This document shows, in pieces, positions 1 to 61,118 of a DNA stretch of 64,000 bases. A model generated the notes under the pieces. It searched no databases, was not told the DNA's origin, and saw only the letters and a program-made list of their open reading frames with translations. A program made the translations under genes and the position numbers. The stretch comes from Bacteroidota bacterium (GTDB lineage Bacteria > Bacteroidota > Bacteroidia > Bacteroidales > UBA4417), in NCBI GenBank assembly GCA_020048595.1, contig JAIFMH010000086.1, positions 17,277 to 81,276 on the forward strand, written 5' to 3'. Position 1 is the first letter of the stretch, and every line of letters begins with the position of its first letter.

Positions 1-1311
1 CGACTCCGCCGGATCATTTTTAAGGTTATAGAGTTGAATGTCATTTCCAGTTTTTGTCGGAATTATGCCGGGATAATGGCCTGGGTTCGATTGTTCGGCT
101 GGTGCGATAATCGTAGTCCCGTCAGGCCCGCGCGAATCGCGCCAGGTGCTTAAATCAACTTTTTTAAAATAACCCGGGTTGTGTACAAACAGTTTCCAGT
201 CGCCTTTACGAACAGACATCAACTGATTGTTATGCATGCTGAAAACCGGTTCATGAATCGTCTGCTTTCCTTTCAAAATTTCAGTAATATCCTTCCCGTC
301 CAAAACATTCTGTGAAGTGGTTGAGACATTTGTCAGAGCTAATAAGGTTGGGAAAATGTCAGGAGACCAACAAGGAACGTCTGTTTTTTTGTTCTCCGGA
401 AAAACTTCAGGATACGAAATGATGAATGGCACCCGGATTCCACCTTCCCAGTTTGTTGCCTTCATCCCTTTAAAGCCACCGGTGCTTCCGCCGTACCATG
501 GACCGTTGTCCGACATAAAGATGACAATGGTGTTGTCCAGAATTTTCAAACTTTTCAAGGTATTCATAATTTCCCCAACCGACCAGTCGAGCTCACGAAT
601 GACATCGGTATATAAATCGTCCGGTGTATCGGGGGTATAAAATTTTTCTGAAGCCGCCAAAGGTTTGTGAGGCATAGCCTGGCACAAATGAAGAAAAAAT
701 GGTTTATTCTTGTTTACTGTGATGAATTCAATGGCTTTGTTGGTATATTTTTGGGTCAACAACCTCTGATCAACCGGGTACTCCACAGTGTCCATATTTT
801 CGATGATCTGTACCGGACGCATGTCGTTCGAATACAGTATTCCGTAATATTCATCAAATCCATGTTTCACAGGGAAATACTCTGGTTTATGTCCCAGATG
901 CCATTTGCCGATGCATTTGGTGCGATAGCCTGCTTCCTGAAAAACATTACCAAGCGTAATTTCACTTGCATTAATTCCGATGTCGTTGATGCCTGCATCG
1001 GGCGTTGGATTTTTAACCAATCCATGACGAAGCGGAAACCTTCCGGTTAATAAAGTAGCCCTCGACGGCGCACAATACGGAGTCGGGACATAAAAACCGG
1101 TACAACTCACGCCACGTTCTGCCAGATTATCAATGTTGGGTGTTTTATAGTTTTTCTGTCCGAAACACGAAACATCGCCATACCCTAAATCATCTGCTAA
1201 GATGATCAGGACATTGGGTTTTTGTTCTTTTACCGGATTACTGCTTTTAGAAGAACAACTAGCGAAAAACAGTAAAGATGAAAAGAGAAAGGGATTTAAT
1301 TTTTGCTTCAT
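1..1311 (-). CDS. Formylglycine-dependent sulfatase, lipoprotein; 3' end cut by the window edge
   Basis: The minus-strand frame is open from the ATG at 1311 to position 1. It is absent from the ORF track because no stop lies inside the window. My translation starts MKQKLNPFLFSSLLFFASCSSKS (lipobox), then PNVLIILADDLGYGDV and YCAPSRATLLTGR (C-x-P-x-R). The last in-frame residues, ..LYNLKNDPAES, match sulfatase C-termini. Confidence 0.9.
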   Translation of the reverse strand, partial: MKQKLNPFLFSSLLFFASCSSKSSNPVKEQKPNVLIILADDLGYGDVSCFGQKNYKTPNIDNLAERGVSCTGFYVPTPYCAPSRATLLTGRFPLRHGLVKNPTPDAGINDIGINASEITLGNVFQEAGYRTKCIGKWHLGHKPEYFPVKHGFDEYYGILYSNDMRPVQIIENMDTVEYPVDQRLLTQKYTNKAIEFITVNKNKPFFLHLCQAMPHKPLAASEKFYTPDTPDDLYTDVIRELDWSVGEIMNTLKSLKILDNTIVIFMSDNGPWYGGSTGGFKGMKATNWEGGIRVPFIISYPEVFPENKKTDVPCWSPDIFPTLLALTNVSTTSQNVLDGKDITEILKGKQTIHEPVFSMHNNQLMSVRKGDWKLFVHNPGYFKKVDLSTWRDSRGPDGTTIIAPAEQSNPGHYPGIIPTKTGNDIQLYNLKNDPAES

Positions 1312-1447
1312 TGGGTATACCTAGTTCATTTCTATTGATGTAATTTCGGGGATAAACCGGCCTGGAAACAGAAAGGGCAAGACCGGATAATTGCCGATCC
1401 TGCCCTAAAATTCCGATTTAATAAAACAACTATTTTCAGCAAATCAT

Positions 1448-2482
1448 TTACGGAGTAATAACCTTAACCGCAAACTCTTCAAATTTCATATCAGTATCCA
1501 CAAATACCAGGGAGTCGTTAACGTGATATGAATTCGCTCCATCTACATAGGTATAATCCAAATAAATCGTGCGGTGCTTTTTGCCATTGTAACCTTCAGC
1601 CTGGGTATCTCCTTTGGAGTAATATTTACCAGTTCCAGTTGCCGCTATGGAAGTGGTGCTTTTTTGTGATACGACTACGCTTTTGTTGTCTTTATTAAAG
1701 GTTAGCAACAAGCTGTATTTAGCATTGGCTGCTTCCGTATTTGTTCCACCTACTGTTGGCATATAATTTTCTGTCAAAGACTTGGTGGTTAACTTGGTCA
1801 TGATATTGTCATCGATAAACTGTTTGGAATAGGCAACAACGTCCAGAGGATTTGTTGTATTTGTTCTCTTTCCTCTTAACAGATAAACACCATGCGTTGG
1901 GTTAATATATTTAATTCCAAACAACACATAATTTTTAGGAGTTACTAACCAATCGGCTACATTTCGCGGATCAGGAGATACTGCGTCTTCGGTGGGGACC
2001 CCACTCAGCACGGAATCTCCAGCTGCATCAGTAATCCTTACAGGAAGAACATAGTGTAAACCTATTGCAAGAGGATCAGCGAAAAATGCATCAGTTAAAT
2101 TCACTCTCATTTTGCCAAAGAAGCTACCCGCAGGAATGGTTAATTTGTCGAATGTTGCATTATAATATTCAGATGGCAGTAATTTAAGTGCATTGCCTGA
2201 AGCATCAGTAATGTTTGATGCCAATTCAGGTGCAAGTTGCACAGTAAGTACCCTATCTTTCTTATTTGAATACATTCCTCCGATTGCAGCGCCAATGCTA
2301 AAGGCATGTTCCAGGTCGATTGAATTATCTCCAATTACTTCGTCCCCCAACATGATTGATCTGACAGGAGTCTGATAGGGAAAATAAACGGTCTGATAAG
2401 CGAAATCATCAAACTCTACATCCTGGTTTTCACAGCCGAAGAGAAGAGTTGCGATACTTAATAAATACACTATCTTTTTCAT
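1448..2482 (-). CDS. PUL-associated surface lipoprotein, DUF1735-like (SusE/F-position glycan-binding candidate)
   Basis: 344 aa with lipobox LLFGCENQ. The N-terminus, DDFAYQTVYFPYQTPVRSIMLGD, resembles the DUF1735/BT_3987-like N-terminal domain. It lies directly downstream of a SusC/SusD pair. Confidence 0.55.
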   Translation of the reverse strand: MKKIVYLLSIATLLFGCENQDVEFDDFAYQTVYFPYQTPVRSIMLGDEVIGDNSIDLEHAFSIGAAIGGMYSNKKDRVLTVQLAPELASNITDASGNALKLLPSEYYNATFDKLTIPAGSFFGKMRVNLTDAFFADPLAIGLHYVLPVRITDAAGDSVLSGVPTEDAVSPDPRNVADWLVTPKNYVLFGIKYINPTHGVYLLRGKRTNTTNPLDVVAYSKQFIDDNIMTKLTTKSLTENYMPTVGGTNTEAANAKYSLLLTFNKDNKSVVVSQKSTTSIAATGTGKYYSKGDTQAEGYNGKKHRTIYLDYTYVDGANSYHVNDSLVFVDTDMKFEEFAVKVITP

Positions 2483-2511
2483 ACTTGTAATTTTTACATG
2501 TTAAATGTTAA

Positions 2512-4242
2512 CTATTGCCAGCCTTGGTTTTGAATCAGGTTATATTTAAGGGTCTCTCCATAAGGAATCGGACCATAAATCTGATAATCGGAGTAATTAC
2601 GACTCTCTACTTCACGATAGCTGTAAGTACTTCCGTCGGCTGACACTTCTACTCCACTAACTGCTTTTTTCATTTCAGTAGTCATCTTCCATCGACGCAA
2701 ATCCCAGAAACGTTGTTCTTCAAAACACATTTCAATCCTGCGCTCATTGCGGATAAGATCTGTCATCTGTGCTTTACTTAATCCAGTTACATAAGTTGTA
2801 GCTGTTATACCAGCTCTGCTGCGAATCGCATTAATGACCTGACGGGCATTGTAGTTTCCAATATTGACATCCGGACCAACGGCTTCATTGGCCGCTTCGG
2901 CAAACATTAAAAGCACATCGGTATAACGGGCATAGGTGTAATAATGTAATCCACCCGAATTCACTTTCGGATCCAAGTTTACATTGCCTACGTTCATGAA
3001 TTTTCTTAAATAGTAACCCGTTTTTGTTGCATAAATACTTGTACTACCCAATGCGTCCTGGGTTCCTGCGGTTGTATTGATCGTGACCGCTGCTGTTCCT
3101 CTTGTAAACTTTGCTCCATTATACAAGATGAATTTTGCTAATCTGGGGTCTCTGCCTGAATAGGGATCGCTTGAATTAATTTTGATGCTGAGTGTTGGGG
3201 TACCATCTGCCATTGGAAAAGCATTCACCAGATCCTGTGTAGGATTAGTCAATCCCTGGCCAAAAAGAGAAGGAGTAAAATTGGATAGTTCCCAGGTAGT
3301 TGAAGAATTTACCCTGGTAGAATACCAAAGCACTTCCGGATGCAAATCTCCTGCATTTGGAACATCTGCATTACTGTAAAACTCGACATTTTTGGTATTC
3401 GCCAAATTAACCAGGGTCAATCCACTATTTTTATCCATTAATTCAGCTGCTGCCTGTGCCGCCATTTGGTATGTATAACTACCATCTGAATAAGCCGGGC
3501 TTGCAGCATACAATAATGCTTTAGCTTTAATCAACCGGACTGTTAATCCATTTATTCTATTGGCGTTTCTTGCACCTGTAGCGATATCGGCACTGGCATT
3601 GCCGCTATCTTTCCATCTGTCCGGAAGTATGGCAATAGCCTTGTCACAATCGTCGATGATGAATTTAACGAGATCTTTAAAAGAAGAACGTGGAATCTGA
3701 TAATCAGTAGGATTTGCTGTTGCCAGCACATGATCAACAATTGGAACGCCAAGCAGTTCTCCATTAGCTCCCTTTCCGGCATGAGCCTGAAGTAGATTGA
3801 AATAATTCCAGGCCCTTAAACCATAGGCTTCGCCCTTGAGTTTTTGAGAAAAAAGAGCGCTGGTAGTTTCGTTTTTCCAGTACCAATTAACTTTATCAAC
3901 CTCTGATAAAAAGGTATTGATGTATAAAATACTCTCATAAGCTGAATTCCATGCGTCAAAAGGATTTGAACTTGATGTCCAGCCTCCCGCAACAACGGTT
4001 TTTATGCTACTTGTAGGTAAATTGTTTACCGCATCGTCAGATGCGTAAGACTGATTGAAGTTGTTATGAACAACAGGAATGTTCCGGTAGGCATTCATCA
4101 GAAATCCTTCGGTATAAGTCACGATAGACTCAACATCATTCAGATCATATATATTTTCATCTTCCGGCTCTAATACACTACATGCATTGGTTAAGCCAAG
4201 TAAAGTGATGAAGATGAATATCAAATATTTGTATTTTTTCAT
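2512..4242 (-). CDS. susD: SusD/RagB-family outer-membrane glycan-binding lipoprotein
   Basis: 576 aa with lipobox GLTNAC. It has the C-terminal family motif ..CFEEQRFWDLRRWKM.. and sits 22 bp downstream of a SusC-like gene. Confidence 0.85.
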   Translation of the reverse strand: MKKYKYLIFIFITLLGLTNACSVLEPEDENIYDLNDVESIVTYTEGFLMNAYRNIPVVHNNFNQSYASDDAVNNLPTSSIKTVVAGGWTSSSNPFDAWNSAYESILYINTFLSEVDKVNWYWKNETTSALFSQKLKGEAYGLRAWNYFNLLQAHAGKGANGELLGVPIVDHVLATANPTDYQIPRSSFKDLVKFIIDDCDKAIAILPDRWKDSGNASADIATGARNANRINGLTVRLIKAKALLYAASPAYSDGSYTYQMAAQAAAELMDKNSGLTLVNLANTKNVEFYSNADVPNAGDLHPEVLWYSTRVNSSTTWELSNFTPSLFGQGLTNPTQDLVNAFPMADGTPTLSIKINSSDPYSGRDPRLAKFILYNGAKFTRGTAAVTINTTAGTQDALGSTSIYATKTGYYLRKFMNVGNVNLDPKVNSGGLHYYTYARYTDVLLMFAEAANEAVGPDVNIGNYNARQVINAIRSRAGITATTYVTGLSKAQMTDLIRNERRIEMCFEEQRFWDLRRWKMTTEMKKAVSGVEVSADGSTYSYREVESRNYSDYQIYGPIPYGETLKYNLIQNQGWQ

Positions 4243-4263
4243 TTTATCTTGATTTAAATTGAT

Positions 4264-7098
4264 TTAAAATGAGGTGACCAGACCTATTGCGAAATTTCTC
4301 GTTCTTGGAGAGCTACCTACATTCAGTTCGGTATATTTTTTATTCTCTCCTAAAACCAGGGCATTATTGGCTCTCACATACACTCTCGAATCTTTTAGAA
4401 ATGATACTTTATTTTTCCCTGAGAAATTATAGGTAAGTTGCATGGTAGGTACAACAAATGAGTTATTCTTAAACATCCAATAATCAGAATTCCGATTATT
4501 ATTGCTTGCAGTTGTTGTTGACAAACGAGGATGGATCGCATACACATTTTTGTTATTGGGACCATACGCATCATTTACCATTTCAGAATATTTTACATCT
4601 CCGAAAACCCGATAATAGTTTCCTGTACGGTAATCATCATTACCTGCCTGGCCTATTCCAAGGATATAGAATTCAAGTTTTTTAAACTTAAAATCCAGGT
4701 ATAAACTATACTGAGTGCGCAATCCGTGACCAATAATCCGCTGGTCTTTTTGGTCAATAATATTATCGCCGTTTTGATCCAGGTATTTTATGTCTCCTGC
4801 CTGAACCGCTCCAAATGTTGGCACTGGTAATCCGGAAACAAGTGAGCCGTCCGGATTAAAATCTGTCTCGCTGTAAAGCCCGTCAGATTTCAATGCCCAT
4901 AAGGCATCGGTTGCAGTTCCAGTTCTCAACAATGCAATATCGGCACCTTCATAAACAGGTTCTTCCTGTTTGGTGATTTTTGGTGAGATATAGAGGATGT
5001 TGCTACCAGCAGTTATTGAAAAATCGGTTGATACATCTAATTTGTAAATAATGCCCAAGTTTAAACCCTGGGTTTGATTGCTGTTGTAATTGCTGTAAAC
5101 CATATTTTCAAAACCAAGAATCTGTGGATAAGTACTCGACATCAAGGTGATATTACCTAACGAAGCGCTGTTAAAGTACTCCAATTCCATATTCATTGCA
5201 TTATTAAAGAGCGTTGCATCCAATCCTAACGAAAAATCTCTTCTTTTTTGCAGTGCAATGTCATTGGCTATGGAAGAGTAATTTGTCTCCGCATTTTGGG
5301 ATACGCCGTTTTGATAAGTAAAAGTACTGCCACGTAAAAATGTACTTCGATATAAGTTGTAATCGGTCCAATTATCATTTTTTGAAATACCAAAAGATGA
5401 GCGAATTTTAAGATAGTTAATAGTGGATATATCTGACATAAAATTTTCTTCAGACAATACCCATCCAAGACCGAATGACGGAGCTAACTCCATACGATTC
5501 CCTTCTTTTAACTTTCTGCTTCCGATACCCATTAACGACATTTCAGCGATGTATTTTTTTGAATACATATAGTTTGCTGAAAACCCGGTATGAAACAATA
5601 CCTCCTTCTGCAGCACATCCGGATTGGTAATCATGTCAGTATACATTAAGGCAGTAGCAGAAACAGCATGCTCCCCGAAGGAACGGTTGTAGTTTAATGT
5701 CCCAAAATAGGAGTCATGCCTGAAAAAGGTAGAATTGGCATTATTCGCATTGTACTTATTCGCTGCTATATCAGTTCCTCGTACATAAGCCGTATCCAAC
5801 AATCCGGTGGTTTCGTCGAAAACAGGTTCGTAAACAGCAAAGCTTGGACTTTGATTCGAATAGATGGTGTTAAAGAAATCCATTCCACCATAAAGACTTG
5901 CAGAAAGTCCTTCTGTAAGAAAACGCATATCAATGTCAAGTTTTCCGCTAAACTGGACATCACGTTGCATCAGTTTCTTATTGCCATTCTGGATAAAATT
6001 ACCGTAAACATTGCTTAGGAACGAAGAATTTCCTCCCAGAAATTGTCCATTGACTAATTTGGCTTTCCGAAGAAGCAAATTCCGTAAATCTTCATTTGTT
6101 ATGATATTGGGGTCCCACATTACCGGATAATTATTGGGCAATTCTGTTGAGGCTGTAGCCCAGATATTATCTGCATTGGGTTGCTTATTAAATGAGAGTC
6201 TTGCGGTTGTACTTATACTCATGTTCATATACTCATTAATGGTAAAATCAAGGTTCCCTCTGAAGTTTAAATTATCAGTAATATCACCCTGAGGGGTATT
6301 AAGCCATCCGCTACTTTGATCCCAGCCAGTACCAACATAGTACCGCACATTTTCGCTACCACCCATTACATCTGCAAATACATTTATACCTGTGGTATTG
6401 TCTTTTAAATAATCGCTGGAATAGAAATCATTATCCGGGAAACGGGCTGGATTAGTTCCGCTACGGGTTCCATCGATTTTCTCCTGCGTATATCGCAAAG
6501 AGGAAGGGGCAATACCGTCATTCAGTTGTGCTTCATTATATTTTCCCATATAATCAGCAGCATTCAGAAATTTAGGCAAAGCCCGTGGGGTCGCATTACC
6601 GTATTGTCCGGCAATTCTTATCTTATGGATACCGGCTTCGCCGCGCTTGCTTGTTATCAGGATTACGCCCAAATCACCCTGTGCTCCATACATTGCTTTA
6701 GATAAAGCATCCCTAAGGATCACAATAGACTCAATTTCCAATGGATTTAAACTGTTAACATAGAAGTCATTCTGACGGATACCATCAACCAGTATAGCTG
6801 CATTTCCTGTTCCCCAGGTATTGTAATTACCAAAGAGTCCCGGTACTTTTCCATTCAGAATCTCTCCAATAGAGCTGTTCTGATCCCGTTTTAGTTCTTC
6901 CTGCACATCAATAGTAATAACCGATCCAGTCGTTTCCCTGGCAGTAATCGTGTTAAAAGTCAGTTTAACCTCCTTGTCAATCCCTTTTTTATCAGGAAAC
7001 GTATCTGTTTTTATATTACTATCTTGTGAATAAAGGATCTGTGATAATGCCAATAACACTATCAAAAAGTTGATCTTTATTATTATTTTTCTTTTCAT
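4264..7098 (-). CDS. susC: SusC-like TonB-dependent transporter (short form, no N-terminal carboxypeptidase-regulatory-like domain)
   Basis: 944 aa. Plug-domain motifs are present (AAILVDGIRQND, GVILITSKRGEAG), followed by a long beta-barrel ending in ..GLVTSF (terminal Phe). It is paired with the downstream SusD. Confidence 0.9.
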   Translation of the reverse strand: MKRKIIIKINFLIVLLALSQILYSQDSNIKTDTFPDKKGIDKEVKLTFNTITARETTGSVITIDVQEELKRDQNSSIGEILNGKVPGLFGNYNTWGTGNAAILVDGIRQNDFYVNSLNPLEIESIVILRDALSKAMYGAQGDLGVILITSKRGEAGIHKIRIAGQYGNATPRALPKFLNAADYMGKYNEAQLNDGIAPSSLRYTQEKIDGTRSGTNPARFPDNDFYSSDYLKDNTTGINVFADVMGGSENVRYYVGTGWDQSSGWLNTPQGDITDNLNFRGNLDFTINEYMNMSISTTARLSFNKQPNADNIWATASTELPNNYPVMWDPNIITNEDLRNLLLRKAKLVNGQFLGGNSSFLSNVYGNFIQNGNKKLMQRDVQFSGKLDIDMRFLTEGLSASLYGGMDFFNTIYSNQSPSFAVYEPVFDETTGLLDTAYVRGTDIAANKYNANNANSTFFRHDSYFGTLNYNRSFGEHAVSATALMYTDMITNPDVLQKEVLFHTGFSANYMYSKKYIAEMSLMGIGSRKLKEGNRMELAPSFGLGWVLSEENFMSDISTINYLKIRSSFGISKNDNWTDYNLYRSTFLRGSTFTYQNGVSQNAETNYSSIANDIALQKRRDFSLGLDATLFNNAMNMELEYFNSASLGNITLMSSTYPQILGFENMVYSNYNSNQTQGLNLGIIYKLDVSTDFSITAGSNILYISPKITKQEEPVYEGADIALLRTGTATDALWALKSDGLYSETDFNPDGSLVSGLPVPTFGAVQAGDIKYLDQNGDNIIDQKDQRIIGHGLRTQYSLYLDFKFKKLEFYILGIGQAGNDDYRTGNYYRVFGDVKYSEMVNDAYGPNNKNVYAIHPRLSTTTASNNNRNSDYWMFKNNSFVVPTMQLTYNFSGKNKVSFLKDSRVYVRANNALVLGENKKYTELNVGSSPRTRNFAIGLVTSF

Positions 7099-7128
7099 AA
7101 TAGATTACATTATTAAGGTTTTTACAAT

Positions 7129-8961: not shown

Positions 8962-8984
8962 TTTTTGAAGTTTATTAAGGGTTA

Positions 8985-12212: not shown

Positions 12213-12339
12213 AGTTTGTGAATTTTAAAGGTTTAATAAATTAGTTTAGTTTGAATGAAAGTTCTTTGCATAATTTCTGTCCATTAGTTGATTAATTATA
12301 GTTTTATGGTCGAAAGTATTTTATGAGGCTTAATAAAGC

Positions 12340-12365: not shown

Positions 12366-12409
12366 AAATGTTAAGATTTATAATTAACTGGCAACATTAC
12401 AATGAGTTA

Positions 12410-36061: not shown

Positions 36062-36116
36062 TTCTTTTTTGTTTGTTAGTATTGGTTGTAAACTGCTTAC
36101 AAGCAAATAGAATATT

Positions 36117-38735: not shown

Positions 38736-38739
38736 TGAT

Positions 38740-48734: not shown

Positions 48735-48780
48735 TTTATTGGGTTTTGATTTATCGCAACAGTGATAATCATTTCGACTG

Positions 48781-51217: not shown

Positions 51218-51372
51218 TCGAAAATATTGTTATTAATAAATTGATTATCTGTGCGTTCTCATGGAACTCTCATGCCAGGAGATCTCCACTTCGAACTATA
51301 TTTTCATTTCTTTTTGTGCCGCCTCCTTTAAAATTATTCCAGCGGCATGTTCGTTTCATAAGTATTTCTTAT

Positions 51373-52965: not shown

Positions 52966-52974
52966 ATCTGTTTA

Positions 52975-54348
52975 TTATTTATTTTTTCTGTTATCAGTCT
53001 TGTTCTTTTTCTTGCCATCAGTCTTATCTTGTTTGTTTTTTAAATCGCCCATTGGAGTTTTCATTTCAGCGCGCCATTTTTCGTATTTTAGCTTCAATTC
53101 GTTTGTTTTCTCCGGATTTTGAGCTGACAGATCATTGTTTTCGCTGATATCTTTCTCAAGATCATACAATTCCAATTTCGCTTTTTTGTCAAAGACCAGC
53201 TTCCATTTACCTGCTCTAACAGCCCATCTGTTTTCTGATCCATCCCAAAACAGCTCTTCATGCAGCGGTTGCTTTAATTTACCCTTAATTGCCGGAAGCA
53301 TACTTTTACCATCATATATCCGGTCGGCTGGTAGTTTGATATCCAGAACTGCACAAATGGTAGGCATAATATCCAGAGAGATAACAGGTTCCTTACACAC
53401 CGAAGGTTTTATTTTTCCGGGCCAGCTCATGACAAATGGCACACGCAGTCCGCCTTCATAAACACTTTGTTTAAAGTCTCTGAGCGGCAGGTTGTTGGCC
53501 GATGTAGCTTTAGAGCCACCATTATCAGAGAAATAAAAAATAATGGTATTTTCATAAACCCCTTCACTTTTGAGTGTCTTAATAACTTCACCTACTGCAA
53601 TATCCATACGGTATATCATTGCCATTTGAATATCGCGATTCCTGTTTCCGGTATTGAATCTCTTGATATCTTCTTCGGGTGCCTGCAATGGAGCATGAAC
53701 CGCATTAAACGGGAGGTACAGGAAGAAAGGTGACTTCTTGTCTGCATTTGTCTTGATAAATGAACAGGCTTCTTTCGCCAGAATATCGGTCAGATAGCCT
53801 TCATCGCTTACAGGAGTGAAATTCCGAACAATACATTCGTAATTTTTTTCATCAGGACAGGTGAAATTGTAATAATCATGTCCGCCGTGCCCCAGAAATC
53901 CATAAAAATCCTGAAATCCTCTATTGAGCGGATGATAAGCTTTTTCAAGTCCTAAATGCCATTTCCCGAAGATGCCTGTGCGGTAACCTTCTTTTTTAAG
54001 CACATCTGCCAGGGTTAACTCACTCAAAGGCATCCCTGCCCTGGAATCGTTGGCCGTGTAGAAACCAAATCGTTGCTGATAACGTCCGGTTAACAAACCT
54101 GCCCGCGTTGGCGCGCAAACGTAAGCGCTGGCGTAACCATTCGTAAAAACCACTCCGCTTGCTGCCAATTTATCGATTGATGGAGTTGAAATGGTAGAAG
54201 GTGAACGTTGAAAGCCGACATCCGCATTGCCCTGATCATCAGCCAGAATAATCACGATGTTGGGTTTTGTCAGATTTTGAGCAGTAAGTCCCATTGTCAT
54301 TAAGACCAATGAAGGAAACACAACTGAAGTTTTCAAAATGCTTTTCAT
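52975..54348 (-). CDS. Formylglycine-dependent sulfatase with Lys/Asn-rich C-terminal tail
   Basis: 457 aa. Motifs: PNIVIILADDQGNAD, AYVCAPTRAGLLTGRY, FSDNGG. The tail is ..KNKQDKTDGKKKNKTDNRKNK. Confidence 0.9.
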   Translation of the reverse strand: MKSILKTSVVFPSLVLMTMGLTAQNLTKPNIVIILADDQGNADVGFQRSPSTISTPSIDKLAASGVVFTNGYASAYVCAPTRAGLLTGRYQQRFGFYTANDSRAGMPLSELTLADVLKKEGYRTGIFGKWHLGLEKAYHPLNRGFQDFYGFLGHGGHDYYNFTCPDEKNYECIVRNFTPVSDEGYLTDILAKEACSFIKTNADKKSPFFLYLPFNAVHAPLQAPEEDIKRFNTGNRNRDIQMAMIYRMDIAVGEVIKTLKSEGVYENTIIFYFSDNGGSKATSANNLPLRDFKQSVYEGGLRVPFVMSWPGKIKPSVCKEPVISLDIMPTICAVLDIKLPADRIYDGKSMLPAIKGKLKQPLHEELFWDGSENRWAVRAGKWKLVFDKKAKLELYDLEKDISENNDLSAQNPEKTNELKLKYEKWRAEMKTPMGDLKNKQDKTDGKKKNKTDNRKNK

Positions 54349-54389
54349 AATTTAATAATTTTAATTATTTGAATAATTTATGATATGAA

Positions 54390-56633
54390 TTAACGATTCT
54401 GGATTACTAACTTTTGGTTATAAACGTGCCCGTCAAGTATTGCGGAAACGATATAGACTCCAGGACTGAAAGAATTATAGCTAAACACGCAGGTTTTCGA
54501 CCGGGGATCACTTTGGACAACCAGTTTTCCATCAATGCTGTAAACAGAGCATTGGTCGATATTTTTAGCTGAAGAAACGATTTCTAATCCGGTTTTGGCG
54601 TAAATTATTTTGATTTGATTATCGATGGATCGATTTTCTGCAGCGGTATTTGTTTCAGGATAAAAAGCTGCAAGGGTATAAACACTGTTGCTTGAAATTG
54701 TATAAAGTGGATTCGCAGCACTTACTTTGGTACTGTTGCTCCAAACATCAAGCACAGTGCCATCTCCCCTTCGGATTTGAAGATTATCAATGTAAAAGTT
54801 GTATTTGCCTGTCTTTTTAAGAATAATACTAAATTTATTTACAACACCCGGAGCTTCACTACCCATGCCAATAACCCTATGTTCCCAAACTCCGGCACCT
54901 CCCAATGGTGCGGGTGCTGTCATTTGAACCCGTCCAAATTGGTCAACCCCTCTTTTGGCGCTAAAGTATTTTCCTGTACCAAAAAACGGCGTTACATAAA
55001 AACCATCTGTTTTACTCCCTACCTCAGCTTTAATATCAAAATGCAAATAATCATCCGGCAATAACTTAAATCCAGTACCCGAAATTTGAATAACCGGCTC
55101 GGGATTACTTGCACCGGAAACGTAATCGGCAGTAACCTTTAATACTGCATTACCTGGAGCGGGATTTATTGGAGTTGCAAGTTTTGGAGCCAGATGTGTG
55201 ATGGCTACACCGATAGATTCTCTCCATTTTTCAAGTTTAGCCAGCAAATCTGATGTAACGACTGAATTACTCATATTCACATTTGTACTTTCAGTAATAT
55301 CAGCCTGTATGGCGAATAATTCGCTGCGATCAATGTATCTCGACATTTTCCATTGGTCAGTGCGAATTACATCGTGGTCTCTCCAAACCCAGTAATATTC
55401 GCGATCACCTGATTGAGCATTGGTTTTCATCTCCTGTAAAAATGAACTGCCATCAATTTCACCAATTACTGAGGTGGATATTCCTGATATTTCCATAAAA
55501 GTGGGCAGAACATCAAGATATCCAACCATTGGTTTAAAGACTTTTGGCCCAACGAATTCCCCTGCCGGCCAGCGTATTACGGCTGGTGAATGCACTCCAC
55601 CTTCTAAAGTGGAGTGTTTATTTCCTCTAAAAGGCAATCCGCTGCCGTCAGGTGTTGCCCCATTATCGGCGAAAAACAGAACTACCGTATTATTTGCAAG
55701 GTTGTTGTCTTCCAGATATTTCATCATCTCGCCCACTTTGTCATCCAGGTTGATTAGCATAGCCGAATACAGCACCTGACGTTCCGAAGTACTTAATGTT
55801 CCGGTAATGCTAAATATGGTATTATCGCCGGTTAGCTGAGCATACATGTTATTCATTTCCGGAGTATCACCATCATTATACAGTTTGTAATACTCTTTCC
55901 AGGTACGAAGCGGACCTCCGGTGGCTTGCAGGATTGAAGCAGGAACACGCTGAAGATCAATATCTTTTACATGAAGCGGAGTGTGGATAATATTCAGGGG
56001 CACATAAGCTAAAAATTGATTTGTCTTGTTTTGTTCAATAAATTCCAGGGCATATCTTGTCAATAAATCTGTTGAATATTCAAATTCTGTATTTATCTCA
56101 GTTTTGTCATGATACCAGTTGGGGCTCGTTGGTTTATTGGCCCAAACTTTCGTATAATAGTCACATCCACCGCCATAAAAACCTATAAACCTGTCAAATC
56201 CATAATCGTTTACATGAGGGAGTGTTGGGTAAAATTCGGGAGCATTGCCATTGTGCCATTTACCAAAAATTCCGGTTTTGTAACCGTTTGCTTGAAACAC
56301 ACTGCCCATGGTCGGAATGCTGGTAGCCAGTTGTCCGTCAGTATTTGGTCCTTGTCCGGTTCTTAACGGATTCAAACCGGTAAGTAAGCCCGCACGTGTA
56401 GGGCTACAGACAGGGCAGGTCATAAAATTACCAAATTCAATGCCTTGATTGATAAGCTTATCGATGTTTGGCGTAGGTGTTTTACCGCCATGACAGCTCA
56501 AGTCGCCATAACCTAAATCATCGGCCAGGATAATCAAAAAATTAGGCCGGGTAGTTTTTTGAGCCAATGTTGCCGTTGAAACTGAACTAAAAGAAACCAA
56601 AAACAAGATGTTGCGGCAATAGATTGTTCTCAT
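54390..56633 (-). CDS. Three-part sulfatase: S1 sulfatase domain, beta-sandwich (CBM-like) region and T9SS C-terminal sorting domain
   Basis: 747 aa. The N-terminal sulfatase has PNFLIILADDLGYGDL, TCPVCSPTRAGLLTG and FADNGA. A non-sulfatase region of about 180 aa follows. The last 75 aa or so (..IKIIYAKTGLEIVSS..CSVYSIDGKLVVQSD..FSPGVYIVSAILDGHVYNQKLVIQNR) fit the Por/T9SS type-A CTD pattern. Confidence 0.8.
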   Translation of the reverse strand: MRTIYCRNILFLVSFSSVSTATLAQKTTRPNFLIILADDLGYGDLSCHGGKTPTPNIDKLINQGIEFGNFMTCPVCSPTRAGLLTGLNPLRTGQGPNTDGQLATSIPTMGSVFQANGYKTGIFGKWHNGNAPEFYPTLPHVNDYGFDRFIGFYGGGCDYYTKVWANKPTSPNWYHDKTEINTEFEYSTDLLTRYALEFIEQNKTNQFLAYVPLNIIHTPLHVKDIDLQRVPASILQATGGPLRTWKEYYKLYNDGDTPEMNNMYAQLTGDNTIFSITGTLSTSERQVLYSAMLINLDDKVGEMMKYLEDNNLANNTVVLFFADNGATPDGSGLPFRGNKHSTLEGGVHSPAVIRWPAGEFVGPKVFKPMVGYLDVLPTFMEISGISTSVIGEIDGSSFLQEMKTNAQSGDREYYWVWRDHDVIRTDQWKMSRYIDRSELFAIQADITESTNVNMSNSVVTSDLLAKLEKWRESIGVAITHLAPKLATPINPAPGNAVLKVTADYVSGASNPEPVIQISGTGFKLLPDDYLHFDIKAEVGSKTDGFYVTPFFGTGKYFSAKRGVDQFGRVQMTAPAPLGGAGVWEHRVIGMGSEAPGVVNKFSIILKKTGKYNFYIDNLQIRRGDGTVLDVWSNSTKVSAANPLYTISSNSVYTLAAFYPETNTAAENRSIDNQIKIIYAKTGLEIVSSAKNIDQCSVYSIDGKLVVQSDPRSKTCVFSYNSFSPGVYIVSAILDGHVYNQKLVIQNR

Positions 56634-56715
56634 TTTGATATCTTATTATTTATCTGGGATATAGCGGCATTGAACTCCATCATGAGTTGTTTGAATTGTA
56701 AACAAATCATGATCT

Positions 56716-58335
56716 TCATAGTTCTGTAACCTCCAATTCTTTGATATATGGTGTTTTTGTCTTGATCATCCAATCTTTCAGTGTGGATTTCAAATCACTG
56801 ACTACCTTTTCGTAGTTGGATTTTTCGGGATTTGTCCCGATCAGGTTATTCATTTCCAGGGGATCGGATTTGAGATTGTATAAAGCGCTAACCGTTTTTT
56901 GCTTTTTATCAGACATCTGGAGATAGACAATCATTTTCCAGTCGCCTTTGCGTAACATGAACGGACCTCCGTTATTTATCTGGCCCCAGACAGAAACCGC
57001 ATAATCAACGGGATCTGCTTTGCCGTCAACTAATTTCCGCAAACTTCGTCCGTCATTTTCAGGAATTTTCATTCCTGTGTAATCTAAAATCGATGCAAAA
57101 ATATCATGGTGCGAAACCGGCGCATTAACTTTTTTTCCGGCAGGTATTGTGCCAGGCAAACGCATGATTAAAGGAATATGAACCGAACCTTCGTACATTT
57201 TCATTTTACTGTTTAGACCATGATCCCCCATCATTTCGCCGTGATCACTAACAAAAACCACCAATGTATTTTCGGTTAATCCTTTTCGGTCCAGCTCGTC
57301 GAGCAATTTTCCCACCCACTCATCAACCTGAGTAACCATGCCATAATAAACCTGCTTCATTTGCTGCACCATTTCCGGATTCTGAAAACGCAGGTCGAAT
57401 GATGTATTATTTCTCTGGTAAGGAGCATTTTGCAAATTGTCGTTTATGCTGGCGGGCACTGACAATAGACCAGGGTTGTATAAATCTGCATATTTTTTAG
57501 GAACGACATAAGGTGGATGAGGAGGACCAAATGAACAGGTGAGCGAAAATGATTTCCCGGGTTTCATCTTTTTTAAGGCTTCCAGAGCCTCGTGTCCTTC
57601 GTAGGCAGCCAAGGAACCATCGGCCAGACCATTAAATATTCCGAAATTCTGTGCCTGAGATACTTCCGATCGGTTGTCCTTCTTTCTTCCATTTTCACTG
57701 GTTGAAACTTCTTCCTTTTGTTCCCCATACCTTCCATCAATAGGAAGGGGAATATACGGACGAAGGCTCATCTTATCAATTACTTCATTGGCATTTGCAT
57801 CTCTTGCCGGTATGCCAAGTTCATCGAGGTATTTTCTGAAACCATCGACAGTTGAGGGGACATTTGCCATCTTTGATTTGCCGGTTGTCTTCACTACATT
57901 GTTGTATTTTGAGGCAAACTTATAAGGAGAATGCCATTTCCCATAATATTCAGTGTGATATCCATTATCAGATAGAATCTGATCGAAAGTTGGAACATTC
58001 GGAATACTATCACTATCAACATCATTATTTCCGAGTACTTTGGTATTAAAAATAGTACGTCCTGTGAGAATGGAGGATCGCGCCGGCACACATACCGGGC
58101 ATGAAGAATAGGCGTTTGTAAACTGAACGCCTCCTTTTGCAAGCCGGTCGATGTTGGGCGTTTTTATTTCCAAATTCCCGGCACATCTCAGGGCATCCCA
58201 ACGTTGCTGATCGGTCATAATAAACAGGACATTGGTTTTCTCATTTACCTGACCAAAGGCTATAAAAGAGGAACAAAAAATAAAACCGTTTAGTAGTACG
58301 ACGGATTTATTAAAACAAGGGATGAGCTTTTTCAT
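56716..58335 (-). CDS. Formylglycine-dependent sulfatase (DQQ-type paralog group); first structural gene after the regulator
   Basis: 539 aa. Motifs: NVLFIMTDQQRWDALRC, SCPVCVPARSSILTGR, VSDHGEMMGDHGL, DPLEMNNLIGTNP. Confidence 0.9.
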   Translation of the reverse strand: MKKLIPCFNKSVVLLNGFIFCSSFIAFGQVNEKTNVLFIMTDQQRWDALRCAGNLEIKTPNIDRLAKGGVQFTNAYSSCPVCVPARSSILTGRTIFNTKVLGNNDVDSDSIPNVPTFDQILSDNGYHTEYYGKWHSPYKFASKYNNVVKTTGKSKMANVPSTVDGFRKYLDELGIPARDANANEVIDKMSLRPYIPLPIDGRYGEQKEEVSTSENGRKKDNRSEVSQAQNFGIFNGLADGSLAAYEGHEALEALKKMKPGKSFSLTCSFGPPHPPYVVPKKYADLYNPGLLSVPASINDNLQNAPYQRNNTSFDLRFQNPEMVQQMKQVYYGMVTQVDEWVGKLLDELDRKGLTENTLVVFVSDHGEMMGDHGLNSKMKMYEGSVHIPLIMRLPGTIPAGKKVNAPVSHHDIFASILDYTGMKIPENDGRSLRKLVDGKADPVDYAVSVWGQINNGGPFMLRKGDWKMIVYLQMSDKKQKTVSALYNLKSDPLEMNNLIGTNPEKSNYEKVVSDLKSTLKDWMIKTKTPYIKELEVTEL

Positions 58336-58394
58336 AGTAGTTTTTATTAAAAATTATCTTCTCATGATTTTATTCACGAAGAAAGGTTTTGACT

Positions 58395-58431
58395 ATTAAT
58401 TTTCAATTAATAAAAAGCTAATAAGATTAAC
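58395..58431 (-). promoter_or_regulatory. Candidate operator: phased ATTAAT/ATTAAC hexamers upstream of the first sulfatase gene
   Basis: On the plus strand, ATTAAT (58395-400) N5 ATTAAT (58406-11) N5 GCTAAT (58417-22) N3 ATTAAC (58426-31). This lies 60-96 bp upstream of the ATG at 58335. The last three hexamers have the same spacing as the site at 12340-12365. Confidence 0.25.
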
Positions 58432-58535
58432 AAGCCCTGAATATGGCTGAATAAAATCCAGCATAAATGAAGAATTTACTGAATTCGGAGTCAAAGTGGT
58501 GATGGGAATTGGCAGAAGATGTGGTCACAAAAAGG

Positions 58536-61118
58536 TTAACATTTTACTAATTCATTAAATGACCTTTTATATTCCTCATTATACAAGAGATGATATTCCT
58601 TTATAAATTTTTCGTAAGTCAGCTTTGCAAGGCTATGCTTTCCTAGGCAATATTCAGCCCTGCATTTCAGAATCATAGCTTCTTCATTACTTCGGTCGAA
58701 ATTAAAAATACAGTCCGCCAAATGAACTATGAATTCAGCTTCAGTTTTTAAATCGCATTTTTCAGCAAAAACCACAAGGGTATCAACAATTTTATCGGAA
58801 ACATCTGACTTGAAATCATCCAGCCATTCGTACCCGCAGTTCATTAAAAAGGCTCCTTTCCCGGTTATTTCTATTAATCTGCTGACATTTTGTTTGGTGA
58901 GATTTGATTTAGAACTTGTAACCTGTAAAAATTCAGCATAATCACATTTAACGTCCTTGTTGCTGTATATAATTTTCCAATACCCGGTATTTTTTGTCAA
59001 TTCAATGGCCCCGATTTCAGCCAGTATTGCTTTGAGTTTTGCAATATTCACGGCCCTGTTGTTTCGTGCACTTAATTCTGATTTATCGAACCACAGATAT
59101 TCTGATAATTTTTCTGAAGATATTCCTTTGTTATTTTTGTGCGTGTAAAGTAGAATGAGTAGAAAAAGTTCTTTTAAAAGAGGTGAGAACTTATTTGTAA
59201 TATCCTCTTTATGCTGGCTAAGAACCTGAAATCCACCGAATAGAACCATCTGATATTTTGGCTTTTCATTTTGTAGCATAGAAACAGATTCTTCAAATTC
59301 TTTATCATTGGCCAATTCATTTGCGGTGACTGCTTCTGATGATTTCCTTTTAGCGTTTCTTTTCCGAATCATAAACCAGGTTAAAAATCCAGATAAAATC
59401 ACCAATGCAATCGAAAGATAGATGAACGATAAATTCTTTTTTGTTTTAACAATCGAGAGATTGCTGTCGGATTTATTTGGCGGATAATCTATCGAATAGA
59501 TACCAACCTGCGTAGACGAAGTGTCTTTTGCAAAGGAAGTATAGGCAAAAAGTTTGTTTTGAAAAGCAAAATAAAACAGACCTGCATTCGATTTGATATC
59601 CGTAAACTTAAAAGGGATCGTATTTCCAACGACATCAACTTTAGGATTGTCAATATTTCCCTTAATCAGTTGTAAAGTTCCTTCAAACTTCATTTTTTCA
59701 AATACCAATGCGTAAAAATCCCGATTTTTCTTATCGATCCACATGTTGTTGACTACACACATATCATCAATCAATCGGGGAATTTCAAATTTTTTGAATA
59801 ATGTCTGATTTTTAATGGAATATCCCATTAAATCGAAATAACTATGTGGATTAACCATCTGACTTCCAGACAAACTACCATAACCCCCTAAAAGATAAAG
59901 TGTATCATTCAAAGAACCAAGACCTGCCAAATACCTGGGCGGGAAAATATTTTTGTTTGAAGGTAATACCTGCCATTCATTTCTCGTTAAATCAAGCTTT
60001 CTTATTTCATTATTGTAGGTATGCATGCCATAACCGCCGAATATGTATATTGAATTCTCCGCAGGATTAAAATAGCTGTTATGATGCCTGGACTTTGTTT
60101 CTGATTTAGTAGAAATGCCAATTTCATTCCATTCGTCCGTCAATATATCAAGACAAAACAATAGTTTACCATCTATCTCGTAACAGTATATTTTTTTATC
60201 CAGGCTATTAAATATGGCTTTAAAATCATTGCTTATTATAAAATTTGGTTTATTCCGGTATTTTACTGTTCGAACATTATCTTCCTGAGCCGAATAAACA
60301 GACAATTCTTTATTTCCGACCAGAAATATTTTACCATTTTCGGTGTCAGGAGCAATCAATACAATTCCTTCAATTTCATTTTGATATTTGGATTCCCATG
60401 CCTGATGATTGTTCTTTAACCACGAAGGATTTTTAACACTGGCCACTTTCTTGCTTAAGCTATTTCCCGCTATGTTACCCTTAACTTCATCCAACGGCCA
60501 ATGATATTCTAATTTTCCCTTTTCAGAAATCCGTATCTCCTTAATACTCATTAAGGGAACATCTGATGATTTAAAATTTTCATAATCATTCGCTCCAAAT
60601 ATGATCTTAAAGTAATCATTATTTTTAAATCCGATGTTTTCCTGAACGTAAAAAGTATCAGGTGTATAAAAAATTAAACGATCTTCACTCAATAAAAACT
60701 TAACACGTAAATTAATCCAACTATCAATAGCGTTATAGGGTGAACCAACCTTAATAATAGAATTGTTTTTCCCAATGACCAGGTTTAAAAATATTGTAGG
60801 TGTAGGTGTTATTATAAGATCAACATTGTTATTCTCTTTGGAAATAACTCTAAAAACATAACCAAATAACCCTGAATAATCGTTTGGTTTTAAAAGATCA
60901 ATTCTATAGTCAAACGAAATTTCAAATTCGTCACGAAAATTTAATAATTGATCAGGAGATAAATCTAATTCTGTTCTTTTATCCAGAACAACATCGTGGC
61001 TTTGAAATTTTAACCCATAAGTTTGAGAGAAAGCTGCATCATTTATAATGATAAAAACAAAAAGTAATATAAGCCGAAAAATAGGAGCAGATCTGCTTGA
61101 TTTTAATGTAGCTATCAT
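58536..61118 (-). CDS. Membrane-spanning one-component regulator candidate: exported LamG-like and Kelch-like sensor, one TM helix, cytoplasmic SARP-type winged helix and BTAD-like domain
   Basis: 860 aa. A signal/anchor spans aa 12-30. Residues about 33-200 look like a jelly-roll (LamG-like). Residues about 250-540 carry Kelch-like repeats (IYIFGGYG, LYLLGGYG). The TM helix is aa 563-584 (LSFIYLSIALVILSGFLTWFMI), followed by RKRNAKRK (positive-inside). Residues 622-705, YQMVLFGGFQVLSQHKEDITNKFSPLLKELFLLILLY..GISSEKLSEYLWFD..ARNNRAVNIAKLKAIL, match the SARP/OmpR-type wHTH pattern. Residues 710-860 are helical and BTAD-like (..GAFLMNCGYEWLDDF..). Confidence 0.6.
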   Translation of the reverse strand: MIATLKSSRSAPIFRLILLFVFIIINDAAFSQTYGLKFQSHDVVLDKRTELDLSPDQLLNFRDEFEISFDYRIDLLKPNDYSGLFGYVFRVISKENNNVDLIITPTPTIFLNLVIGKNNSIIKVGSPYNAIDSWINLRVKFLLSEDRLIFYTPDTFYVQENIGFKNNDYFKIIFGANDYENFKSSDVPLMSIKEIRISEKGKLEYHWPLDEVKGNIAGNSLSKKVASVKNPSWLKNNHQAWESKYQNEIEGIVLIAPDTENGKIFLVGNKELSVYSAQEDNVRTVKYRNKPNFIISNDFKAIFNSLDKKIYCYEIDGKLLFCLDILTDEWNEIGISTKSETKSRHHNSYFNPAENSIYIFGGYGMHTYNNEIRKLDLTRNEWQVLPSNKNIFPPRYLAGLGSLNDTLYLLGGYGSLSGSQMVNPHSYFDLMGYSIKNQTLFKKFEIPRLIDDMCVVNNMWIDKKNRDFYALVFEKMKFEGTLQLIKGNIDNPKVDVVGNTIPFKFTDIKSNAGLFYFAFQNKLFAYTSFAKDTSSTQVGIYSIDYPPNKSDSNLSIVKTKKNLSFIYLSIALVILSGFLTWFMIRKRNAKRKSSEAVTANELANDKEFEESVSMLQNEKPKYQMVLFGGFQVLSQHKEDITNKFSPLLKELFLLILLYTHKNNKGISSEKLSEYLWFDKSELSARNNRAVNIAKLKAILAEIGAIELTKNTGYWKIIYSNKDVKCDYAEFLQVTSSKSNLTKQNVSRLIEITGKGAFLMNCGYEWLDDFKSDVSDKIVDTLVVFAEKCDLKTEAEFIVHLADCIFNFDRSNEEAMILKCRAEYCLGKHSLAKLTYEKFIKEYHLLYNEEYKRSFNELVKC

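Follow-up and report, generated by a model that had tools for sequence, protein, structure and literature searches.

A very large sulfatase-rich polysaccharide utilization locus in a Bacteroidota bacterium with a predicted sulfated alpha-mannan target

The window analysed here, 64,000 nt of contig JAIFMH010000086.1 (positions 17,277 to 81,276) from an uncultured Bacteroidota bacterium, spans the greater part of a very large polysaccharide utilization locus (PUL), in which two adjacent SusC/SusD pairs (2512-12212) share a strand with five genes of glycoside hydrolase (GH) families and 14 sulfatases of family S1. By its enzyme families, the target is most likely a heavily and heterogeneously sulfated glycan rich in alpha-linked mannose, of the class of diatom sulfated alpha-1,3-mannan and glucuronomannan, and we favour, with moderate confidence, a diatom-type sulfated alpha-mannan or heteromannan. 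A preliminary description, made from the sequence alone, had proposed a heavily sulfated mannan carrying glucuronic acid as the target of the PUL. Hidden Markov model (HMM) family assignments support the sulfated, alpha-mannoside-rich part of that proposal, and the alpha-mannan reading is well supported because a Polaribacter filamentus locus holds orthologues at 74-80% identity and because the gene mix matches a published type of sulfated alpha-mannan PUL from Polaribacter.

Glycosidases and sulfatases

The glycosidase-family and sulfatase genes of the window are listed below; L numbers denote the comparative loci introduced in the next section.

32452-34707, minus strand: GH92 alpha-mannosidase (Pfam E 3e-144; TIGR01180, 606 bits; nearest structure 2WVY, 319 bits)
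40902-44288, minus strand: GH38 alpha-mannosidase of 1128 aa (four GH38 Pfam domains; nearest structures of the Ams1 type, 225 bits)
44336-45631, minus strand: secreted GH99-like barrel of the GH71/99 clan (PF16317, 33.8 bits vs a cutoff of 33, covering only 77 profile positions)
38740-40878, minus strand: divergent GH115 family protein of 712 aa (PF15979, 138 bits, E 7e-40, cutoff 27)
47772-48740, minus strand: GH88/GH105-like (alpha/alpha)6 protein (PF07470, 89 bits, E 3e-25; nearest structure 3K11, 37 bits; weak GH105 matches)
1-1320, minus strand: S1 sulfatase, a lipoprotein cut by the window edge (CAPSR motif; orthologues 63-72% identical in L010, L013, L079 and L081)
13551-15164 and 15154-16548, minus strand: two S1 sulfatases (Pfam; formylglycine motifs)
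17637-19100, 19122-20558 and 20609-22078, minus strand: three S1 sulfatases (Pfam)
24701-26323, minus strand: S1 sulfatase (Pfam)
30844-32433, minus strand: S1_11-type sulfatase (hexose-6-O-sulfatase subfamily), a lipoprotein (5G2V, 503 bits; sequence of 7LHA/7LJ2, 371 bits)
34742-36172 and 36117-37670, minus strand: two S1 sulfatases (Pfam)
51373-52965, 52975-54348, 54390-56633 (with an extra C-terminus of 270 aa) and 56716-58335, minus strand: four S1 sulfatases (Pfam)

All five glycosidase calls of the preliminary description (GH38, GH92, GH99-like, GH115 and GH88/105) held under HMM testing, the matches to GH99, GH115 and GH88 being remote. GH92 orthologues were 73-75% identical in P. filamentus and other loci, and a homologue was also present in a Tara Oceans sample. 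Only the C-terminal ~100 residues of the GH99-like protein aligned to Bacteroides GH99 structures (match to 4AD1, E 3e-6). Both catalytic glutamates of GH99 were aligned (DEIDEG in the GH99-like protein vs NEWHEG in GH99) and were invariant in 19 homologues. Judged by these alignments, the kinship is at the level of the clan, short of demonstrated GH99 family membership, and the protein is a candidate endo-alpha-mannanase. Its family is very large, with more than 7800 homologues, and the closest match among GTDB species representatives was 90% identical and came from a groundwater metagenome-assembled genome (MAG).

The catalytic domain of GH115 was detected in the GH115-like protein and the C-terminal GH115 domain was not; the nearest solved GH115 structure was 6NPS (52 bits). 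Orthologues with 56-79% identity occurred in 11 related loci besides the contig of the source strain (L001). The apparent overlap of the GH88-like gene with the neighbouring cupin gene stems from an upstream alternative start; a start near 48740 (MKKSDLKLSF) precedes a signal peptide and is the likely true one.

The count of 14 sulfatases given in the preliminary description was reproduced with 13 complete PF00884 matches in Pfam and a translation of 1-1425, where the remaining gene runs off the left edge. All 14 bear the Cys-type formylglycine motif C-x-[PA]-x-R, and their pairwise identities did not exceed 40%. By sequence, 30844-32433 clearly belongs to S1_11, with orthologues 74-80% identical in L002, L013 and L015. 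As in Polaribacter-type sulfated alpha-mannan PULs, GH92 stands beside multiple S1 sulfatases, one of them predicted to be an S1_11 exo-sulfatase. In eight loci, orthologues 71-86% identical to the sulfatase at 51373, which is not S1_51, lie near the GH99-like gene.

The absence of fucosidase, galactosidase, agarase, carrageenase and glycosaminoglycan (GAG) lyase signatures, as first described, was borne out: Pfam and NCBIfam returned no fucosidase, galactosidase, agarase, carrageenase or known lyase family in any open reading frame (ORF). Carrageenan, agar, ulvan and GAG were rejected as substrates for want of matching GH or polysaccharide lyase families.

Related loci and published systems

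Every window protein was searched against 80 genomic loci around GH99-like homologues and loci from exact look-ups. A homologue of the window GH92 gene was present in 36 of the 83 loci carrying a GH99-like homologue. In the P. filamentus locus, which is rich in GH92 and sulfatase genes, orthologues of the GH99-like protein (80%), GH92 (74-75%) and S1_11 (75%) occur together among further GH92, sulfatase, phosphatase and GFO/IDH/MocA oxidoreductase (GFO) genes. The window itself has a block in the order GH92, S1_11, phosphoesterase, GFO, phosphoesterase, beta-helix protein, sulfatase, aldo-keto reductase (AKR) and ManD-like dehydratase; another MAG retains the order of the first five, and likewise the succession GH92, S1_11, phosphoesterase, GFO, beta-helix protein, and there the GH92/S1_11 block lies 2 kb from a Kelch/GH99-like/GH38/GH115 block on one contig. 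Best matches of several window proteins came from Mariniphaga, Prolixibacteraceae, Draconibacterium and unclassified Bacteroidales MAGs; by these matches the host would be a Prolixibacteraceae/Mariniphaga-like member of the Marinilabiliales.

Among loci with a GH99-like protein at least 74% identical to that of the window, 11 of 16 had at least one sulfatase, a GH115-like gene was found in 9 of 15 besides the source-strain contig, and GH38, GH92, xylose isomerase (XI)-like barrels and GFO/IDH/MocA genes recurred. In a second clade (GH99-like identity 48-60%), sulfatases were absent in 59 of 66 loci, and the GH92 orthologue and a homologue of the Kelch-type regulator described below were present. 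Hosts of this clade were Mucilaginibacter, Pedobacter, Puia and Chitinophaga from soil, and Bacteroides cellulosilyticus, oleiciplenus, timonensis and ovatus from the gut. A sulfatase-poor clade beside a sulfatase-rich one is what would be expected if a module for the mannan backbone had been adapted to mannans with different decorations. On the simplest reading of these sequences, GH99-like, GH92 and Kelch genes would form an ancient module for glycans with an alpha-mannan backbone, of which the window would be a sulfate-adapted form.

Two sulfatase-free relatives, L049 (Bacteroides cellulosilyticus) and L037 (Mucilaginibacter sp. SMC90), carry the GH99-like/Kelch module with GH95, GH3, GH31, GH43 and a GDSL esterase, and L037 also has GH92; their substrate may be a decorated fungal-type alpha-mannan. 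The GH99-like protein of the window is of the same clan as GH195, the endo-alpha-1,3-mannanase family of Polaribacter-type PULs. As many as three GH99-like paralogues, 33-50% identical, occur per related locus, and one locus includes a DUF5010-CBM35 protein with a type IX secretion system (T9SS) domain. 3-Keto-disaccharide hydrolases of PF06439 stood beside the GH99-like gene in three loci of the first clade (GH99-like identity of at least 74%).

The preliminary description had called such degradation systems poorly described, a statement outdated by papers of 2018, 2021 and 2026 (PMC6298971; PMC9723552; PMC13063451). PULs rich in sulfatases and GH92 that also contain GH88 and a GH99-like gene were put forward in 2018 as glucuronomannan PULs (Kappelmann, PMC6298971), visualised in situ in 2021 (Zeugner, PMC9723552) and partly characterised by biochemistry in 2026 (PMC13063451). 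Experiments have shown that the PUL of Polaribacter sp. Hel1_33_78 degrades the C6-sulfated alpha-1,3-mannan of diatoms, by means of an S1_51-GH195 fusion, a mannose-6-sulfate-releasing GH92 and the S1_11 mannose-6-sulfate sulfatase PbSulf2 (PMC13063451). Its gene table lists five GH92, two S1_11, two S1_51, S1_15, S1_53, two S1_71, GH88, GH2 and two GH3, together with two stand-alone GH99-like genes, a GH99-related GH195, a carbohydrate esterase (CE) and a putative new lyase, and 18 of its 21 enzymes were inactive on pure mannan (PMC13063451).

Compared with published marine alpha-mannan PULs, as the preliminary description had suggested, the window has GH92, S1_11, GH88 and GH99-like genes in common, but its accessory set differs. 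Both the window and the Hel1_33_78 PUL are SusC/D-based and dominated by S1 sulfatases and GH92, both have GH88 and GH99-like genes, the S1_11 sulfatase is a lipoprotein in each (PbSulf2 and 30844-32433), and most enzymes of either lack an assigned function. GH38, the GH115-like and beta-helix proteins, the ManD-like, AKR and XI-like proteins exported by the twin-arginine translocation (TAT) pathway, two phosphoesterases and the Kelch regulator are found only in the window, whereas GH3, GH2 and CE are found only in Hel1_33_78; no S1_51 homologue was present among the three sulfatases compared (two of the window and one left of it). There are two GH92 genes here, one of them outside the window, vs five, and about 18 sulfatases vs nine. 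Unlike Hel1_33_78, the host lies outside the flavobacteria and probably does not live in the sea.

In the classification of North Sea Flavobacteriia, GH38-containing alpha-mannan PULs (type B) are without sulfatases (PMC6298971). The window resembles type A glucuronomannan PULs in combining GH92, sulfatases, GH88 and a GH99-like gene, with the same sulfated alpha-(glucurono)mannan predicted as in the preliminary description. By pairing GH38 with the highest sulfatase load, it fits neither type cleanly. A literature search for GH115 combined with GH92, GH38 and sulfatases found nothing.

The yeast alpha-mannan loci (MAN-PULs) of Bacteroides thetaiotaomicron, studied by Cuskin et al. in 2015, reportedly comprise GH92, GH38, a GH99 endo-mannanase, SusC/D import and periplasmic exo-mannosidases; they are also said to carry GH76, GH125 and regulators of the hybrid two-component or extracytoplasmic function types, and no sulfatases. 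The window shares GH92, GH38, GH99(-like) and SusC/D with them, its GH99-like protein being only remotely related to the B. thetaiotaomicron GH99 (E 3e-6 over 100 residues). GH76 and GH125 occur there and sulfatases only in the window, and the regulator types differ.

Nature and origin of the substrate

Glucuronic acid, which the preliminary description had placed in the target, fared less well than mannose: GH115 and GH88/105-like matches are present, but they are remote and come without a recognised lyase or uronate catabolic genes. Uronic acid is weakly supported by four items, namely the divergent GH115, the GH88/105-like protein, an anion-type permease and a ManD-like enolase, and no recognised polysaccharide lyase that would generate the GH88 substrate was found in the window. 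From these families an acidic decoration of the substrate is plausible. A brown-algal fucoidan, raised earlier as an option, is unlikely without fucosidases and with near-identical contigs that apparently come from an inland mat; a fucoidan backbone was rejected on the absence of fucosidases.

Contigs with identical proteins were found in five JGI metagenomes, one SRA run and the NCBI whole-genome shotgun set JFJP01, and close relatives of the locus come from groundwater, lakes and other inland samples. One JGI record with identical genes is named MIS_1001246. MIS is the abbreviation in use for a cyanobacterial mat of Lake Huron, that of the Middle Island Sinkhole, and the record name suggests this mat as the source of the sample. 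If this record name does designate that mat, its main phototrophs are diatoms and Phormidium and its main heterotrophs Bacteroidetes (PMC8651085). The habitat of the host is probably an inland sulfidic mat and not marine.

Several points weigh against a diatom-type sulfated alpha-mannan. The GH99-like match lies at the Pfam threshold, and both stand-alone GH99-like proteins of Polaribacter were inactive on pure mannan (PMC13063451). No homologue of the S1_51 endo-sulfatase (OpSulf1, 9FVT) was present among two window sulfatases and the T9SS-tagged sulfatase left of the window: in the comparison with 9FVT, two of these three gave 75 and 95 bits, and the third had no match at E up to 1e-30. The window lacks counterparts to GH3, GH2 and CE of the Polaribacter PUL as well as the uronate catabolic genes UxaC, UxuB, KDG (2-keto-3-deoxygluconate) kinase and KDG aldolase, and the uronic-acid evidence consists of remote homology throughout. 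The 18 mutually divergent sulfatases of the whole system, the two phosphoesterases and GH115 suggest a heteroglycan more complex than any characterised diatom mannan. The source is likely a cyanobacterial mat, in which sulfated cyanobacterial exopolymers would be equally available.

The main rival explanation, to which we assign a low probability, is a sulfated heteropolysaccharide of mat cyanobacteria or other mat organisms, composed of mannose, uronic acids and perhaps phosphate, whose side chains or blocks would be trimmed by the mannosidases. Identical genes in several metagenomes, including the MIS_ record, and the inland relatives would agree with such a polymer, and the divergence of the sulfatases, the phosphoesterases and the enzymes of unknown function imply that it is complex. 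One published account deals with the cycling of sulfated exopolymers in cyanobacterial mats (PMC9723792). However, the GH99-like/GH92/S1_11 core is 74-80% identical in the marine Polaribacter locus and GH92 has its Tara Oceans homologue, the presumed source mat is rich in diatoms too, and Pfam detected no rhamnosidase, fucosidase, galactosidase or glucosidase, which would be expected for cyanobacterial heteropolymers.

Architecture and extent of the locus

In the ORF listing (ORFs of at least 150 aa), all 38 genes within 1-61118 were on the minus strand. That interval has just two plus-strand ORFs of this length, 15976-16506 and 36147-36734, both of them shadow ORFs inside minus-strand genes. 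Of 37 gene junctions, 28 were 64 nt or shorter or overlapping, including a TAATG stop/start overlap at 47772 and an 8-nt overlap at 49871-49878. These features of the unidirectional run agree with the preliminary description, which had counted about 40 genes; the 38 found include one IS982 transposase and one regulator. Gaps of 150-230 nt and terminator-like hairpins divide the cluster into several transcription units, and a 9-mer search for a shared operator motif in the long intergenic gaps returned AT-rich words only.

The span 1-61118 given earlier is part of a real locus, but position 1 is not its end: identical contigs run on leftward. Four of them (L084-L087) give a full-length 466-aa version of the sulfatase cut by the window edge, and the left continuation (L084, 7633-17496) adds a second GH92 gene and four more sulfatases, one with a T9SS sorting domain and one with a laminin-G domain. 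The sulfatases of the whole system thereby number at least 18, and its GH92 genes two. Its transport, surface, cytoplasmic and mobile genes within the window are as follows.

1448-2482, minus strand: surface lipoprotein with BT_3987-like_N and DUF5627 domains (Pfam; lipoprotein Cys)
2512-4242 (SusD-like) and 4264-7098 (SusC-like), minus strand: SusC/D pair 1 (SusD_RagB, E 2e-45; Plug domain)
7129-8961 (SusD-like) and 8985-12212 (SusC-like), minus strand: SusC/D pair 2 (SusD_RagB, CarbopepD_reg_2, Plug)
12418-13460, minus strand: insertion sequence of the IS982 family, transposase 12444-13349 (terminal inverted repeats ACCTGAGTTCGA / TCGAACTCAGGT; DDE_Tnp_1_3, E 5e-70; NF033520, 268 bits)
37689-38735, minus strand: lipoprotein of the ABC_sub_bind (PF04392) type (Pfam E 3e-15)
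46894-47772, minus strand: secreted protein with an F5/8 type C (CBM32-like) domain (Pfam, 28.7 bits)
48781-49878, minus strand: cytoplasmic cupin resembling class I mannose-6-phosphate isomerase (PMI) (TIGR00218, 83.5 bits; 1QWR, 47 bits)
49871-51217, minus strand: major facilitator superfamily (MFS) permease of the anion:cation symporter group (TIGR00893, 192 bits)

Both SusC/D pairs named in the preliminary description were recovered by Pfam. Several such pairs in tandem within one PUL are common. The lipoprotein at 1448-2482 is likely a surface glycan-binding protein, as judged from its domains. The ABC_sub_bind-type lipoprotein has no ABC partner genes nearby, and an orthologue with 52-54% identity adjoins the GH115 gene in L016. 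The earlier call of a cytoplasmic mannose-6-phosphate isomerase is correct as to the PMI-like cupin, but with 83.5 bits against a TIGR00218 (manA) cutoff of 116.2 the protein stays below the equivalog level of class I enzymes; its sequence places it in the right fold family, with the substrate uncertain. Similarly, the permease described as ExuT-like belongs to the anion:cation symporter group, which includes hexuronate and aldonate carriers, but is not identifiable as ExuT; an orthologue 84-85% identical adjoins the PMI-like gene in L010.

The IS982 element is intact and separates the SusC/D transport genes from the sulfatase and enzyme genes; the same insertion was found in an independent metagenome contig (L086). 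At the other end, fragments of a TraG-type coupling protein of a type IV secretion system (61154-61492 and 62950-63897) share a near-identical stretch and look like remnants of a conjugative element adjoining the PUL regulator. Between them lies a plus-strand ORF of 229 aa (62197-62886) with no Pfam match, overlapped by a minus-strand ORF of 162 aa and of uncertain coding status. The IS982 element and the TraG fragments fit lateral spread of modules, and so do PUL proteins that remain 74-90% identical between bacterial orders, although these identities could also result from strong purifying selection.

That the region is a composite of at least two neighbouring PULs or modules with different substrates, assembled by mobile elements, seems decidedly improbable. 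Such an origin would account for the two SusC/D pairs, the IS982 element between transport and enzyme genes and the TraG fragments on the right flank, the hairpins and longer gaps point to several transcription units, and the GH99-like and GH92/S1_11 blocks have different partners in other genomes. Yet these two blocks are 2 kb apart on the same contig of an independent MAG, there is a single candidate regulator, tandem SusC/D pairs are usual in single PULs, and all recognisable glycosidases indicate one sugar class. Sulfated or phosphorylated mannose-rich glycoprotein glycans, N-glycan-like or fungal phosphomannan-like, are a very improbable substrate: GH92, GH38 and a GH99-like protein form the classic trimming set for N-glycans and yeast mannan, a BT_3987-like N-terminal domain lipoprotein and two secreted phosphoesterases are present, and a glycoprotein substrate was also raised by Kappelmann et al. 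(PMC6298971), but GH18, GH85, GH20, GH130, GH76, GH125 and peptidases are all absent from the window in Pfam, 18 sulfatases are far above the need, and the sulfatase-free relatives are better candidates for fungal-type mannans.

Beta-helix protein and exported non-hydrolases

In addition to the hydrolases and sulfatases, the locus, predicted here to target a sulfated alpha-mannan, encodes a set of secreted proteins of other types.

26333-27565, minus strand: secreted right-handed beta-helix protein of 410 aa (AlphaFold2 model; no family assignment)
22143-23480, minus strand: ManD-like dehydratase of the enolase superfamily with a TAT signal (NF043051, 401 bits vs a cutoff of 550)
23513-24535, minus strand: aldo-keto reductase with a TAT signal (Pfam; RR motif conserved in orthologues)
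45681-46787, minus strand: xylose-isomerase-like TIM barrel with a TAT signal (Pfam AP_endonuc_2; RR signal kept in six orthologues)
28708-29799, minus strand: secreted GFO/IDH/MocA oxidoreductase (Pfam; weak matches to glycoside 3-dehydrogenase families)
27602-28690, minus strand: secreted metallophosphoesterase 1 (Pfam Metallophos)
29863-30687, minus strand: secreted metallophosphoesterase 2 (Pfam; orthologues 70-74% identical in L004 and L010)
16606-17589, minus strand: secreted protein of 327 aa with a faint aldose-1-epimerase-like match (Pfam Aldose_epim, E 0.002; no other match)

The beta-helix protein had no match in Pfam, NCBIfam or the PDB, in either single-sequence or profile searches, and 2611 homologues, the best 120 of which were 83-94% identical. 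PF12708 passed its cutoff in P0365, a distant homologue with 49% identity. An AlphaFold2 model, built on a deep alignment from a full HMMER scan, had a predicted local distance difference test (pLDDT) score of 91.5, and Foldseek related it to tailspike depolymerases of phages, GH91 inulin lyases, GH28, a mannuronan C5-epimerase/alginate lyase and GH87 (E 7e-6 to 4e-4, 8-12% identity). Based on this model, the protein is a candidate glycan depolymerase (hydrolase, lyase or epimerase) of a new carbohydrate-active enzyme (CAZyme) family, and possibly the missing lyase of the locus. On a Tara Oceans scaffold its neighbours are once more sulfatases, GFO, AKR and a ManD-like gene. There (L094, 16677-19861), a glycyl-radical enzyme with its activase, GH130 and an SSF transporter adjoin the sulfatase/beta-helix/ManD-like block.

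The ManD-like protein scores below the equivalog cutoff for D-mannonate dehydratase ManD and has a twin-arginine export signal that is conserved (the RR signal is kept in orthologues of L015 and L079), so that it falls outside ManD proper. Since it carries a TAT signal, it is predicted to be periplasmic and outside the cytoplasmic uronate pathway, and a role in that pathway was rejected. A periplasmic enolase-superfamily dehydratase is unusual in a PUL. Genes of the GFO/IDH/MocA type recur beside GH99-like genes in related loci, and phosphoesterases of various families recur in L002, L003 and L093; the substrate may carry phosphate esters, or these enzymes may have an activity not yet recognised.

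The closest parallel to the GFO and XI-like pair is the oxidative (3-keto) glycoside cleavage of BT2156-2160 (NF058561, NF058563), in which an exported GFO/IDH/MocA protein is likewise paired with an XI-like TIM barrel; PF06439, as noted, occurs in loci related to the window. In contrast to BT2156-2160, the window itself lacks PF06439, and its matches to the BT_2158 and BT_2159 families are far under cutoff (35 and 22 bits). We infer the role of the pair from this likeness. More speculatively, and as a possibility that we rate as doubtful when taken as a whole, the GFO/IDH/MocA protein, XI-like barrel, AKR, ManD-like protein, two phosphoesterases and beta-helix protein could make up a periplasmic oxidative or eliminative route that cleaves or desulfates sulfated mannosides refractory to glycoside hydrolases and S1 sulfatases, the beta-helix protein founding a new CAZyme family and the Kelch protein representing an undescribed class of PUL sensor for sulfated and non-sulfated mannan systems. 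In such a route the sugar might be oxidised first and the aglycone, or a sulfate group, then eliminated.

Candidate Kelch-type regulator

58536-61118, minus strand: candidate sensor/regulator of 860 aa (Kelch Pfam matches; sequence features)

This protein is laid out as a signal peptide, an unassigned domain, a periplasmic Kelch propeller, one transmembrane helix and a conserved cytoplasmic domain of 250 aa, the latter with no Pfam match and none in a PDB profile search. Homologues accompany GH99-like/GH92 genes in 27 of the 83 loci, including those of gut Bacteroides and of soil Mucilaginibacter and Pedobacter. A literature search found no description of a Kelch-type PUL regulator. From its domain order, the protein may represent an undescribed, one-component-like class of PUL regulator.

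Discussion

The families, localisation signals and gene neighbourhoods given above can be arranged into a pathway, in which the identity of the substrate, the order of the steps and the role of every non-hydrolase are conjectural. Secreted proteins would first open the polymer, with the GH99-like putative endo-mannanase, the beta-helix protein and the T9SS-tagged sulfatase to the left of the window as candidates. Oligosaccharides would then be imported by the two SusC/D pairs with the surface lipoprotein. In the periplasm, about 18 S1 sulfatases, one of them an S1_11 hexose-6-sulfatase, would strip sulfate esters while GH92 and GH38 take off mannose, and the GH115-like and GH88/105-like proteins would remove acidic or other decorations. 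The exported GFO/IDH/MocA, XI-like, AKR and ManD-like proteins might process linkages or monomers beyond the reach of the hydrolases. The products would pass to central metabolism through the anion-type MFS permease and the PMI-like isomerase, with the Kelch transmembrane protein as the likely sensor.

What is known in this system is the core of a sulfated alpha-mannan PUL; what is new is a partly unknown accessory set and a different host lineage and habitat. The sulfated mannans of diatoms are a large carbon pool, for which the only characterised cascade covers 3 of 21 enzyme genes (four catalytic domains) of the model PUL and acts on homomannan only. Outside the marine Flavobacteriia, the GH99-like/GH92/S1_11 core travels with a different, highly conserved accessory set, comprising GH38, the GH115-like protein, the family-less beta-helix protein, periplasmic redox and dehydratase enzymes and phosphoesterases, and the Kelch regulator links loci of the window type with relatives that have no sulfatases, from gut Bacteroides and soil Sphingobacteriia. 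The locus supplies candidates rather than a new principle, and its genes are candidates for missing steps such as the breakdown of glucuronomannan or the removal of sulfate at positions other than C6.

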